13,618 nt of DNA from IMG/VR virus record IMGVR_UViG_2690316086_000023. The stretch is one strand, 5' to 3'. Shown in pieces: positions 3,001-9,000 of the stretch. Made by a program: the position numbers. Positions within the stretch are counted from its first letter, which is position 1; each line of letters begins with the position of its first letter. This DNA comes from a virus (taxonomy: Duplodnaviria; Heunggongvirae; Uroviricota; Caudoviricetes).

Positions 3001-6000
3001 GCGACATCCTTCTCTTTCATGTACTCCAGCATTACGGCGTTACGTTCTGCTTCATAACTTTCGCTGTACTTACGGAGTTCTACTGACATCCAGTTAAACG
3101 CATTGATATAGGCTTCTTTAACAGCATCGGCTTTTGCCCCGTTAAATCCCATAACCAGCATAACGAAGCCACTAAAGTCCATGCGGTAGTAAATCTGTTT
3201 CTTGTCAAAAATACCTAAGTCATTGATTTTCTCGACGGCCCAAAAATGGGTTGTCGAGAATTCCTCAGAACATCTCAAACATTTAATAGCCCTAATCACA
3301 TGCTGATGGCGTTTACCAAATGCCCTGGCAATCTGGAAGGTGTCAGTTACCGGTTGACCTTCTGCTGCGGTAACTAACTGGCGAAAGTCGAAGTCATGAT
3401 TCGCAATTAATTCATTCATGGCGTTGCCTGCTTCTTTGAAATGAACCTTTGCCGCACAGGAAACCAGCCCACCGAGGCTCGCCAGCACTAACTGGTATCC
3501 TCAAAGGCCCATTCCAAAGGGTCAGGTTCGGTGTTTATTGTGCGCTGCGGTGCGCGGTGAAATACCGGTACAAAAATGCCCCGCATCTGCGAGGCATTTT
3601 CCTGAAAGTCACTTGTTAAATTTCAGTGAAATTAAAATTATTTTAAGCACTGCGTCCTGATGTATTCCTGCAGGTAGTTAACCTGCGCGGTTATCTTGTC
3701 GATTCCACCTCGGAGACGGTAATAATTGAGTTCAGCATCTGCTGTAAGTCCTGGGCTTTCTCCATCGCCCATGCTGCTGGCTCCGGTCGTTGACTTTGCA
3801 CAGGTGGCGGAGACTTGCAGGCGCTTACGACCAGCAGAAACATCAGCACGGAGACTTTCGATAGTCGCGTTAGCATCAGCAAGTTCCTTTGTATATCTTG
3901 CGTCGAGTTCTGCTACATCACGTTGACGCTTCTGCATATCAGCGATGATGGATGTGGCTTTATCGCGCTGCTCTTTGTAGGCGATGGCGTTATCACGGTA
4001 ATGATTAACAGCCCATGACAGGCAGACGATGATGCAAATAACCAGAGCGGAGATAATCGCGGTTACCCTGCTCATTGCTGCCCCCACAAACAGACTTCAC
4101 GCTCAATATCACGACGGGTCATCAGCCCTTTCCATTGCTTACCGCCAGCGTATGTCCAGCGACGTAGCTGGTCACATGCGCCTTTGATATCACCCTGGTT
4201 TATTTTGCGAAGAAGCGTCGATGTTCTGAAATTACCAGCGCCCACGTTGTAAACGAACGAGTAAAGAGCGCCGCGCGTTGTTTCCGGTATATCGACTTTG
4301 ATGTACGGGTTAATTTGTCTGGCGACCGTGGCAAGGTCTTTATTCAGGAGGGCTTTGCATTCTGCTTCGGTATACGTTTTACCGGGAATGATGTCTTTTC
4401 CGGTGTGTCCGTGACATACAGTCCATACGCCAACGATATCTTCGTATGGTATGTAGCTGACACCTTCCAGGCCATCGTCACCACTCGGACCAGTGATGAG
4501 CACAGACGCTATGGCAACAGCCCCACCACCAATAGCAGCAGCAACAGCCTTGCGTAATGATGGCGACATTATTCACCTCTCGCAGCCTTACGCTTATCTT
4601 CTTTAATCTTGAAATAAAGGTTTGTCAGATACGTCAGCAAGCCAAACACCAGGCTACCCAATACGCCTATTGCCACCCACTGGGATGGGGAGACTTTGTC
4701 CAGCAACTGCAGTAGCCAGTATCCCGTCCCCACCACTGACGTGGTGTATGACACACCTGTTGTTATTTTTTCCATCTGGTACATACCCCGTCTCCCGTTA
4801 TCCGGAAGCTGACAACAATAAAAAGCCACCAGTTAATTCCTGATGGCCCTGATGCATAAACGTCATAATACCTGACTGTTATGATTGACAATAATGATAA
4901 TGTTTATATAGAAAGGTTCCCGATGTGTGTTACATATCATTTCTCCACGGGGAATATCCCCACGCCAGCGCAGACTCTTTTACCCGTTCTCTTCTGCGCT
5001 GGCTCTTTTTTATTATGCTGCTGCATTTACCTCTGGCACCATGCTTTCTATCTCAACACAATACGTGGTACTTCTTGTAACCAATATCATAACGATTAAT
5101 CGACATAGAATTTCTCCCGTGTACAGGAACAGAGTTAAAAAGCCGGAACCGGAATCAAATCACAGGATGACCATCTGCCAGTGGCAGGTCATAAAAAAAA
5201 GGCCGCGCCATGCGCAGCCAGAACTCACAAGGAAAATGATAGAAGGAAATAACATTAGTGATGTACGCATGGCGCCTCCCGCTAAGTTCTGCAATGATCA
5301 AACAGAACTCGCTACGTGCCCTTAAAACTCGATCATTTAGCCCCTCCAAGGAGGATTCACCATGCGGTTGATTTTTTAATAAACAGTAAACAAAAAAGTC
5401 AAGAATTATTCATTCTGTTCTTTCATCATCGGCCACAGCAATACCACAATGCCGCAGACCAGAGCGCCATCAGTCAGTACCAACATTATCCTGCTGGTGA
5501 AATCCATCATCACCATCACTAAAAGCAGGATCACAACAGCAAGCAGACACAGTTTATAAAACAATGTTCAGAAAACGCATTCAGCATGCCTAAGGTTCTA
5601 TTCCTACGAATAGCCAACTTGCAACTTAAAATATTATTTATGCAGCCAATTAAATTCTGGTCCTTACAATATCAACCTGAAGATTCTTATCTTGTGCTGA
5701 TTGATAAATGACAAACCTTTTACTACCTGCATTGAAAGAAGTAGACAAAACCAGACAATTATCATAACGAGCAAGAACATAATACCAACCATCATTATAA
5801 TTAATCATTTCATATTCTTTCTTAAACTGTGGTTTGTAATATCCTGTCAGAAATGAAAAAAGCCAGAAATATGCCACAAAAGCAATCATCACAATCTCAA
5901 AAAAATGTTTTTTTATAAATGGCTTATCATAGAAGCATGATACCGATAAAAATCGCCCATAAGATCTTATCGAAATTGTAACCGCCAGCGCAATCGCTGC

Positions 6001-9000
6001 TGACAGTAGCAAAAGAGGTACCTGAATCTTCTGTCTCAATATAGAAAACTCAATAATTGCCGGCACAAACAATAATTCCACAGCAAAATAAAGGCGAAAT
6101 ACATTTAGCTCTTGCATAGAATGTTTTCTTTTCACTGCGAAAAAGAATACAACACCAATACCCCAACCGATAAGAAATATAGCAATGACGATAACTGCAA
6201 AAAATAAACTTCTGGCAACATCATCAACACCTGCACCTACAATCCACCATGGGAAGCCGTAGTAAAAAGAAGTACCCCATCCATAGAAATAAGCACTCCC
6301 CCATCCAAGGCATCCCATGTAGGCAATAAAAAGTGAAGAACTCCTGAGCAGCGCACCATCCTTCATAACCCCCCCAATACAAGATGATAACATTGGCTTA
6401 CAACTCATAACAAAAGCAATTCAATGCCGTCAAGAGGTTACAGGCTAAAAAAACTCTATTACATAGCAGCCAGCATGTTTACCGTACAAGTACAACTCAG
6501 GGCATAAAAAAAACCCACTCGGCAGCGGGTTTATACATTTTTTACAACATACCAAATTTGCATGAAGTATATGGCTTTTAATCCAGTTTTGCAATATTTT
6601 GCTGTAAAAATGCTGCCTTTTGTTTTGAACGTGTTTTCGTCACAAGCAATAAAGCATCACTATCAAGCTGTAGAAAAATGTGCTTCATTGCAACCCAGCG
6701 TTCAGTAAATGTCTCGGACCAGTTTTTTGTTGTCACTCCCACCAATGATGCCAGTGTCTGGTATTCATAGGCCTCACGCCCTGCAAGTTCGCTCTTCACA
6801 TCCTGTGCAGCCAGCCAGATTAACGTCTTCAGGCGATCCAGTGTCTTACCTGCAATTTTTCTGTTACTTAACAAATCTTTAAACTCGCTCCATGCCCATT
6901 GCGTTATGGTGACCTGATGCCCCCATCGAACGCTTTCGCTGTAACACCAAAGCAACCATGCTTTCTGATGTTCATCGAGAGACAAAACCGCGCGGCGCCA
7001 TGAAGAGGTTGAGAATTCAACCGGGCTGACCAAAGCAATGGATGAACCTTTTGCGTACGACTGCTTACCGGAAGTCGGCGTATTATCCAGCGTAATCATC
7101 TTGCCAGTTACCACATCCAGAATGCGCGGCTTCTTTCGTTTGTATGTACCAGTATCAAATTGTGCATGCTCCTGCCAGGCTTCGAGCTGGCCTTTCGTTG
7201 CTCCGTTCAAGTCAGCAGTAGCTGCCATAAGTTGCTCACGAACATACTGTAAATATTGGGTATTCATGCAGTAAATCCTTTCTATATTTTGGCATAATTC
7301 TTCAACATTCGGTAATCGTTCAAAACCGAATCGGGGAAACGACATAAGCACAGGAGCCCCCAGCGACAGCGAAGGAGTTCTGATATATAAGACTCAGACA
7401 TCATTCATTCCCCGGTTCTCCAATATCTGTTTCACTCATCATCCATAACTACCTGTAATTGCCCCCCCTTTTTTTGTAACAGTTCTTATATTGCTATATA
7501 GAATAGCCATTACTAATGCATTTAAATTTAATAAAATAAAAATTATAAAAACACAAAACACCACGCAAACACACTTAATAAAAACACCGTTACATTAAAA
7601 GATAATAAAAACAACAATAAAAAACGAATAAATCAATTGTCTCACGCAATTATAAAACATCATATTGATTACGCACCTTGTATTACAAACTCATGTATGT
7701 AAAATACGCGCACCATTCAAAAAAAAGGAAGACAATAACATATGAAAAAAAGTGTCATCGCTGGCGTCTTTATTGCTCTGTCATTTACCACGTGTTCAGC
7801 TATCGCGAACAGCCTTGCATTATCATTAGCAAATGATGATGCAGGGAAGTTTCAACCAATACTTAATGATATTTATGGCAATAAACATGAAAACAGAGAT
7901 GATTACTCACAAGGCTTATTTCTGGGATATAGCCACGATATCTCAGACTCGAGCCAATTATCTCTCCATATTGCGCAAGATATTTACTCTCCATCAGGCA
8001 GTAATAAAAGACACAACACAGCTGTAACTGGAGACAGAGCTTTTAGCGCATACACTCACACTGGTATTGAATGGAACTCCCTTGCGAATGACTGGATTCG
8101 CTATCGATTAGGTACTGACATAGGTGTTGTTGGCCCCGACGCAGGCGGTCAGAAAGTACAAAATAAAGCTCATGAGATTATTGGGGCAGAAAAATATCAT
8201 GCATGGGATGATCAAATAGAGAATCGCTACGGTTATACTGTAAAAGGGATGCTATCCATGACACCAAGTATGGATATTTTAGGTGCTAATGTTGGATTAT
8301 ACCCTGAAGTTTCTGCTGTTACTGGAAACTTATTTCAATATGTAGCATATGGCGCAACCATTGCCATTGGTAATGATAAAACCTTCAATTCGGATAATGG
8401 CTTTGGTCTGCTGGCTCCCCGTGGTTTAATGCATATGTCCGATACAAGCGGATTCAAATACAAGATTTTTGCAGGTATGGAAAGACGAGATGTCAATCGC
8501 AACTATACTCTCGAAGGAAAAACAATACAGACGAAACAAACAACAGTATCGCTAAACAAAACTGTTGATGAATATCAAGTTGGCGCAACAATTGGGTATG
8601 CACCTGTAGCCTTCACACTAGCATTTAATAAAGTAACATCAGAATTCAAGACAGGGGATGACTATTCATTTATAAATGGAGCAATCACCTTCTTTTTTTA
8701 ACTGAATTGAATTCAATCAAAATAACATAAGTCCAACAAAAACATAAAGTGCGAAATGAATGCTAGCTCCATTTATTTCGCACTATAAAAGATTAAAAGT
8801 TGCAATAAAATAATAAAATGACTCAGTTACGAAAACCAATAAACTGTGGCCAGTAGTGAGTCGCTCATCATCGGGCTTTTTGGCGAATGAAATTTAGCTA
8901 CGCTTTCGAGTCTCATGCGCCTTCTCCCTGTACCTGAATCAATGTGAGGTTTCCGCAGAACACTGCGCCAGTATCGATATACATCTGGTTGGCAAATTTG

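Follow-up and report, generated by a model that had tools for sequence, protein, structure and literature searches.

At pR' of phage 82, the Q-binding element (QBE) lies between the -35 and -10 hexamers and RNA polymerase pauses at +25 at a -10-like element (PMC4914094). The Pfam family of Q proteins PF06323 has been named the Q82 family by the Ebright laboratory (PMC9388147). In Shiga toxin (Stx) phages, the leader RNA made between pR' and the terminator tR' is the small RNA (sRNA) StxS (Sy et al. 2020, PMC7547250). In eight Sakai prophages, convergent sRNA pairs occupy a moron site located 3' of the pR' that Q antiterminates (Tree et al. 2014, who attribute the moron concept to Juhala et al. 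2000), and enteropathogenic Escherichia coli (EPEC) carries PasD1 and PasD2, diverged relatives of STnc100 located beside Q, LpxR and a holin-lysozyme operon (Zhu, Shabalina & Storz 2026 preprint). Here, we compare with these systems the interval between the antiterminator gene Q and the holin gene S in a 13,618-nucleotide (nt) stretch of Caudoviricetes DNA (IMG/VR record IMGVR_UViG_2690316086_000023). The whole of this stretch is called the window; its late operon is on the minus strand.

Three intrinsic terminators, designated T1, T2 and T3, lie on the late-operon strand between Q and S at the places where the initial annotation had put them (T1, 6532-6503; T2, 5219-5193; T3, 4850-4814), and they coincide with three of the strongest terminator-like sites in a consensus scan. 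Each is a single G+C-rich hairpin followed by a U-tract, placed between genes and on the transcribed strand. The terminators are real, but all are parts of known prophage features of the phage 82/434 and Stx types, in an arrangement that is ordinary and already annotated. Rather than three copies of one Q checkpoint, as the initial annotation implied, they are a probable tR' (T1), the terminator of the sRNA PasD1 (T2) and a terminator of the pinholin cassette (T3). Neither T2 nor T3 duplicates tR'; T2 came with the cargo and T3 with the lysis cassette. In our reading, the terminators belong to the region for late regulation and lysis in a defective lambdoid prophage of pathogenic E. coli, where a Q-pR'-tR' cassette of the phage 82/434 type is combined with a pinholin lysis cassette of the Stx-phage type and where T1 is the tR' of a phage 82/434-type late promoter. 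The probability of this joint reading is about 0.75. The elements on which it rests are as follows (z scores are against dinucleotide shuffles).

6578..7267, minus strand: Q antiterminator gene, Q82 family (PF06323), 229 aa, start MNTQY...; the 690-nt open reading frame (ORF) is also called by the NCBI annotation pipeline PGAP.
6566..6594, minus strand: late promoter pR', 82 type; -35 TTGCAA at 6594-6589, 17-nt spacer, -10 TATACT at 6571-6566.
6546..6554, minus strand: sigma70-dependent pause element, extended -10-like TGgTATGTT, predicted from an alignment at +6 to +14.
6503..6532, minus strand: T1, intrinsic terminator, probable tR'; stem 6532-6511 (AAACCCGCU/AGUGGGUUU), loop GCCG, U8 at 6510-6503; -11.8 kcal/mol, z = -4.0.
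5193..5219, minus strand: T2, terminator; stem 5219-5201 with 8 bp (7 of them G-C), U8 at 5200-5193; -14.0 kcal/mol, z = -2.7.
4814..4850, minus strand: T3, terminator just upstream of the pinholin gene; core stem 4847-4825 (arms GCCAUCAG/CUGGUGGC), extendable to 4850-4822, tail UUUUUAUUGUUG; -15.2 kcal/mol, z = -3.0.

The identities of Q and of the DUF3927, S, R and Rz genes described below are Pfam profile assignments. The Q protein matched PF06323 with an E value of 5.8e-92 over 216 of the 220 profile positions, a family membership that fits the Q antitermination logic proposed for this locus. The Q gene shares 89% nucleotide identity with that of phage 82 and 99.4% with that of phage 434, and the similarity to phage 434 extends over window positions 7400-5082 (99.4% identity). 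Over the 136 nt that include the end of Q, the promoter, the initial transcribed region and T1, the match to phage 434 is 100%, and the 434 record has a terminator annotated where T1 lies. The distance of about 45 nt from the Q stop (6580-6578) to T1 was as previously given, and the promoter that the initial annotation suggested over the end of Q, TTGCAA-17-TATACT, has both hexamers in place and is conserved. This region was aligned with six other Q82-type phages from Escherichia, Enterobacter and Klebsiella hosts. TTGCAA was invariant in all seven promoters, and the -10 hexamer was TATAYT in 6/7 (GATATT in Flotzy). The first ~15 transcribed bases are also conserved, and the motif TGnTATnnT is kept in every one of the seven. 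With +1 taken as approximately A6559, the -10-like element TGGTATGTT sits at +9 to +14, and by analogy with phage 82 a pause would be expected near +25, at about 6535. The spacer of pR' (AACTGGATTAAAAGCCA), the region in which the QBE of phage 82 lies, is largely conserved among close relatives. Past about +20 the seven promoters diverge, yet each has a hairpin and U-tail starting between +31 and +52 (terminators within +31 to +75). In the window, the T1 hairpin occupies +28 to +49 and its U-tract extends to +57, giving a predicted terminated leader of ~53-57 nt. Such constancy of place without constancy of sequence would be expected of a functional tR'.

We also noted a perfect CII box, TTGCN6TTGC (TTGCAATATTTTGC), at 6589-6602 on the plus strand, which overlaps the palindromic -35 hexamer of pR' on the opposite strand. 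The phage 434 record labels this site as the paQ -35 and CII site; no cII gene was seen in this prophage.

Past T1, the interval up to T3 carries the following accessory features.

5650..6366, minus strand: accessory (moron) ORF, STM1630-family membrane protein, at the PGAP start (the longest ORF runs from 6408).
5406..5564, minus strand: DUF3927 small membrane protein (PF13064, E = 3.4e-14), TciB-like and called TciB in the phage 434 record.
5193..5365, minus strand: PasD1, Hfq-dependent sRNA, EcOnc13 homologue, STnc100-related; identical to EPEC PP4 pasD1.
4997..5106, minus strand: remnant of a nanS-p-like SASA esterase gene, its first 25 nt (ATG at 5106) joined to ~85 nt of its 3' end.
4924..5013, plus strand: Esr41-like sRNA, antisense to and convergent with late transcription; Rfam Esr41 (RF02676), 32.3 bits, E = 0.007.

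A Pfam search with the membrane ORF (5650..6366) gave no match. From the DUF3927 ORF to the holin, ~620 nt contain no credible protein gene.

T2 is the terminator of PasD1, a known, Northern-validated, Hfq-dependent sRNA. This follows from the identity of the sRNA sequence and from its published 3' end. In EPEC, pasD1 is annotated at NC_011601 1060260-1060432 (+), and its homologue in enterohemorrhagic E. coli (EHEC) is EcOnc13 (Pearl Mizrahi et al. 2021, supplement). These coordinates map to window positions 5365-5193, which puts the annotated 3' end on the final U of the T2 tract. The 3' end thus comes from EPEC prophage PP4, to which window positions 6510-4000 are 99.3% identical. The seed UGUGAG, at 5229-5224 just 5' of the T2 stem, matches the published fragment, and the window sRNA differs from PasD2 at the few positions that separate the two variants. 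A candidate promoter has its -35 hexamer, TTGACT, at 5402-5397. When Rfam was scanned at a relaxed threshold, STnc100 (RF02076) matched 5395-5190, ending in T2, with 37.7 bits (E = 2.7e-5); the gathering score of 47 bits was not reached, which makes PasD1 a relative and not a member of that family. No family reached its gathering score in the Rfam scan of the whole window. The neighborhood, consisting of LpxR (7742-8701), Q, the membrane ORF, DUF3927 and then the holin, is as described for the EPEC loci. The initial annotation had placed T2 after the moron. Its position was right and its description incomplete, since the 3' end map makes T2 the terminator of a separately annotated, abundant sRNA.

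A 36-codon ORF (MRTSLMLFPSIIFLVSSGCAWRGLFFMTCHWQMVIL; 5160-5270, minus strand, ATG at 5270) lies inside PasD1 and runs through T2, with a Shine-Dalgarno sequence (GGGAGG) and a lipobox-like motif. As a coding feature it was rejected: a 1-nt deletion in PasD2 cuts the frame to 14 codons. By our own reading, the STnc100 consensus contains no comparable ORF. The ORF is probably noncoding; because it runs through T2, it is conceivable, and still more speculative, that it is encoded whole solely by Q-modified read-through transcripts. The same deletion in PasD2 brings the C-terminal peptide into the frame of a TTG ORF that starts upstream and is a membrane protein in the phage 434 record.

In the stretch from T2 to T3, the identity to phage 434 reaches as far as 5082, which is 25 nt inside that phage's SASA esterase gene, and 5081-4997 is 80.7% identical to the 3' end of the esterase. 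The start of the gene is therefore joined to its 3' end by an internal deletion of ~1.75 kb relative to phage 434. EPEC PP4 shares this deletion, and the esterase gene is present in phage 434 and EPEC PP2. On the opposite strand, the Esr41-like RNA would face PasD1, so that the interval carries a convergent sRNA pair. It falls short of the Esr41 gathering score (102 bits, compared with the 32.3 bits obtained) and has a terminator loop of 25 nt compared with 7, and we designate it Esr41-like only. It has its own terminator (stem 4964-5003 followed by a T-run; the fold has -35.8 kcal/mol, z = -5.6) and a candidate promoter with a perfect TTGACA at 4885-4890. Fragments from EPEC Hfq RIL-seq (ligation and sequencing of interacting RNAs) at NC_011601 1060613-1060654 (-), with many chimeras, map to 4971-5012. 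An ORF annotated over this RNA in EPEC (E2348C_1013, hypothetical) had 2064 counts, ~8-fold fewer in an hfq mutant. E2348C_1013 matches a 132-aa ORF at 4927-5325 (+) in the window, which is probably no real gene.

T3 directly precedes the lysis genes.

4792..4808, minus strand: small stem-loop predicted by folding over the Shine-Dalgarno sequence of S, CUUCCG/CGGGAG (arms 4808-4803 and 4797-4792).
4569..4784, minus strand: S, class II holin (pinholin) of the phage 21 type; two start codons, for Met1 at 4784 and for Met4 at 4775; PF04971, E = 5.4e-32.
4072..4569, minus strand: R endolysin (phage lysozyme) whose N terminus has a hydrophobic segment of the signal-arrest-release (SAR) kind; PF00959, E = 2e-45.
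3638..4087, minus strand: Rz spanin gene; PF03245, E = 1.1e-34.

By their Pfam matches, all three lysis genes are intact. The dual-start motif of S reads MYQM..., with both ATGs in one frame, and the R homologue of phage 434 carries a SAR endolysin annotation. The spacing of 33 nt between T3 and the holin ATG given in the initial annotation is correct, with the ATG at 4784. The 80 nt from T3 to the S start are 80-94% conserved in 315 phage records, including VT2-Sakai, VT1-Sakai, EDL933-Stx and phage 1717, and by this comparison T3 accompanies the pinholin cassette of Stx phages. In an alignment of ten sequences, the T3 stem was paired in 97% of cells, and at two stem positions an A-U pair is replaced by G-C through double changes, in different lineages. 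When the 3' arm of T3 was shifted, pairing fell to 39-64%. The stem over the Shine-Dalgarno sequence was paired in 89% of cells in the same alignment and showed no double changes; it resembles the sdi structure that controls the dual starts of the lambda and phage 21 holins. At the position of T3, phage 434 and EPEC PP2 have another sequence that also forms a hairpin followed by a run of U; the 434 record lists it as a terminator.

Published RNA-seq data for uninduced EPEC (DESeq2 base means, 'activating' condition) give transcript levels on either side of T2 and T3. In PP4, a lambda-type Q and pR' are joined to the same accessory and lysis region (1500-1625 of the PP4 locus used here), and the copy of T1 has decayed (ACCTGCCGCCGAGTAGTTTTT) and is no longer called by the scan, which leaves T2 and T3 as the sole recognizable terminators ahead of the PP4 holin. 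Counts in PP4 were 6 for Q, 147 for the membrane ORF and 8652 for pasD1, and then 5.4 for the holin, 3.9 for the endolysin and 0.7 for Rz. PP2, which shares Q, pR' and T1 with the window, gave 69 for its Q82-type Q, 226 for the membrane ORF, 37 for the DUF3927 ORF, 11017 for pasD2, 102 for the esterase, 3879 for pasA, 3.5 for the holin and 3.2 for the endolysin. The accessory genes and sRNAs are thus transcribed in EPEC lysogens in which the lysis genes, located a few hundred bases further downstream, stay silent. PasD is stabilized by Hfq, and the thousand-fold drop in counts therefore overstates the efficiency of termination, with the direction of the effect clear.

Taken together with the phage 82 biochemistry, these features suggest how the region would work. 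RNA polymerase would initiate at pR', with +1 at ~6559, and pause near +25 at the -10-like element TGGTATGTT. Without Q, it would terminate at T1 and release a leader RNA of ~55 nt. With Q, the Q82-family protein would be loaded at the pause to give a terminator-resistant polymerase, which would transcribe past T1, along the accessory genes and past T2 and T3, and so reach S, R and Rz. That lysis would depend on Q in this prophage is the expectation of the textbook model. Since the accessory genes and sRNAs apparently have promoters of their own, T2 and T3 most likely act as insulators that keep lysogenic transcription from entering the holin and endolysin genes and that would be ignored by the Q-modified polymerase.

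A first alternative develops the view of the initial annotation: the terminators are three redundant, tandem Q checkpoints, a stack selected for strict Q dependence, and the prophage, though defective, is retained for inducible lysis or release. There are indeed three good terminators in series before S, the lysis genes are intact, and they are silent in uninduced EPEC. A promoter bypassing the terminators just upstream of the holin had been named as the observation that would speak against this view, and the scan found no promoter-like site between T3 and the S start, so that no such bypass was seen. The structural genes are gone as well. In E. coli O103 ML775, our comparison genome, which matches the interval 4700-6650 at 100%, Rz and a Rha gene are followed only by ylcI, tail-fiber fragments, NleG, EspJ and then chromosomal torT. 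The annotation of this prophage contains no terminase, head or tail genes, from which we conclude that the prophage is defective, as had been supposed for packaging. However, each of the terminators has a separate origin and a separate job, as a tR', as the 3' end of PasD1 and as a cassette-linked terminator. The window starts to resemble PP4 at 6510, directly past the T1 stem, and Stx phages at ~4852-4857, where the T3 hairpin has its 5' base; these mosaic joints indicate that the trio was assembled by recombination from separate origins. The inducible device is doubtful on its own account. The ML775 prophage annotation contains no N, cI, cro, O or P gene, and hence no evident inducible route to Q; IS1203 occupies the early region, and no second Q82-type Q able to act in trans was found in ML775 at megablast sensitivity. 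Retention of the locus can also reflect descent: ~654 complete E. coli genomes hold at least 80% of the interval, and 549 matching records are at least 99% identical, so that persistence may simply follow from recent common ancestry. O157 and O55 strains carry the interval at 99.8% identity. We consider a selected stack of checkpoints unlikely and prefer a tR' joined by recombination to two terminators of other origin.

A second alternative concerns T3 alone, which might be mainly an RNA stability or translation element and not a terminator, either as a hairpin that protects the 3' end of the upstream message (nanS-p or orf43) or as part of a 5' leader structure that tunes the dual holin starts. 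In Stx phages the hairpin starts a few nucleotides past the stop codon of the upstream ORF, and T3 is 7 nt upstream of the conserved stem over the S Shine-Dalgarno sequence; both facts would suit such a role. Against it, the U-run after the stem, the signature of an intrinsic terminator, is kept in every variant, even in the differing version of phage 434 and PP2, and the curators of phage 434 annotate the equivalent site as a terminator. In PP2, moreover, counts per nucleotide are ~3-fold lower in the holin than in the esterase. The terminator and stability roles can also coexist. That T3 is chiefly something other than a terminator seems to us quite improbable, and we retain it as the terminator of the pinholin cassette.

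It is equally improbable, in our judgment, that the terminators are kept by host selection, with T2 and T3 as essential safety insulators and Q as the only key to a retained lysis cassette that could be used for altruistic lysis or cargo release. The late leader contains two very active sRNA genes, PasD1 and the Esr41-like RNA, as well as the membrane-protein gene; if the proposal were true, loss of T2 and T3 would let lysogenic promoters drive the lethal pinholin and endolysin. The insulator function that we favor for T2 and T3 would, for its part, explain how prophages can hold strongly expressed sRNA genes at a distance of a few hundred bases upstream of a holin gene.

Several observations weigh against the reading of the region as a working late cassette with insulated cargo. 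The EPEC counts stem from a related strain and from RNAs of differing stability. The promoters of the accessory genes are weak consensus matches, and the promoter scan gave 33 promoter-like sites compared with 35 +/- 6.6 in shuffles, which is no excess. The +1 and the pause position rest on geometry and conservation. The gene content of the ML775 prophage, with none of the five early genes annotated, leaves the source of Q in doubt. Finally, the number of terminators is by itself marginal (about p = 0.05): in 4785-6580 the scan found 4 late-strand sites compared with 1.5 +/- 1.1 in dinucleotide shuffles, 5 of 100 of which reached 4, and the fourth of these sites, a weak hairpin at 6299-6269 inside an ORF, is probably due to chance.

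That the hairpins are chance features or decayed relics, functionless in this defective prophage, could be argued from these counts, from those of the whole window (17 terminator-like sites compared with 10 +/- 3.5 expected) and from the decayed T1 of PP4, but this is hardly credible, because all three are intergenic, intact and oriented with the late operon, T1 keeps its position among phages with unrelated hairpin sequences, T3 carries compensatory changes, a mapped sRNA 3' end falls on T2 and the EPEC counts drop across T2 and T3.

Other genes of the window lie outside this interval. A gene for the type III effector NleG is located at 582-1214 (-), ~2.4 kb downstream of Rz; in ML775, EspJ follows NleG, the prophage abuts torT, torR is truncated and ISEc12 is nearby. 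No tRNA genes of the kind found downstream of pR' in Stx and PPompW phages were found here. The LpxR (lipid A deacylase) gene at 7742-8701 is on the plus strand, opposite to the late operon, and EPEC LpxR is highly expressed (2936 counts). Upstream of LpxR, as in phage 434, a 72-nt N-terminal fragment of a lambda-type Q is present at ~8845-8916 (-); apparently, an earlier Q of the lambda type was replaced by the Q82-type Q. A 590-aa ORF without an assigned function (11294-13066, plus strand) lies between nin-region genes and IS1203, at the site where the immunity and replication region would be expected.

Every one of these elements was already known or annotated, from the phage 434 record, the biochemistry of phage 82, the PasD and EcOnc papers and the described lysis cassettes of Stx phages. 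The GenBank record of phage 434 annotates T1, T2 and, before the pinholin, a terminator of different sequence at the position of T3. What is gained is a correct annotation: between Q and S there is an island of moron and sRNA genes, not an empty leader with three checkpoints. The island is comprised of the membrane ORF, the DUF3927 ORF, PasD1, the esterase remnant and the antisense Esr41-like sRNA, and its terminators separate cargo expressed in the lysogen from lethal genes.

Compared with the late cassette of phages 82 and 434, the window has a Q of the same Pfam family, a promoter and T1 identical to those of 434 and a -10-like element where the +25 pause is expected. There is no difference of substance; here, the cassette is in a defective prophage without an annotated immunity/early region or structural genes. 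The likeness to the pR'-tR' segments of lambda (6S RNA) and of Stx phages is one of principle, in that a constitutive late promoter is terminated just downstream in lysogeny and read through with Q, leaving the leader as a by-product RNA. Unlike the Q of lambda, which belongs to PF03589, the window Q belongs to PF06323, and the predicted leader, at ~55 nt, is much shorter than those of lambda (194 nt, with tR' at +193) and of Stx phages (258 nt).

PasD1 is identical to its EPEC counterpart throughout 5365-5193, including seed and terminator, with no sequence difference. The setting is another one, since PasD1 of EPEC PP4 follows a lambda-type Q, whereas that of the window follows a Q82-type Q, like PasD2 in PP2 and phage 434. 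As at the EHEC moron site, accessory genes with their own terminators and candidate promoters lie between pR' and the lysis genes. In contrast to that site, the sense sRNA PasD1 faces an antisense Esr41-like sRNA instead of an anti-sRNA of the AgvB/AsxR type, and the esterase that usually separates the sRNA pair is internally deleted. The lysis genes, in turn, match the phage 21 and Stx cassettes in their dual-start S of family PF04971 and in a lysozyme with an N-terminal hydrophobic segment, and they have the upstream T3 and the Shine-Dalgarno stem in common with VT2-Sakai, EDL933-Stx and phage 1717, among others. In Stx phages T3 follows orf43 or nanS-p, whereas here it follows the esterase remnant and the promoter of the Esr41-like sRNA.

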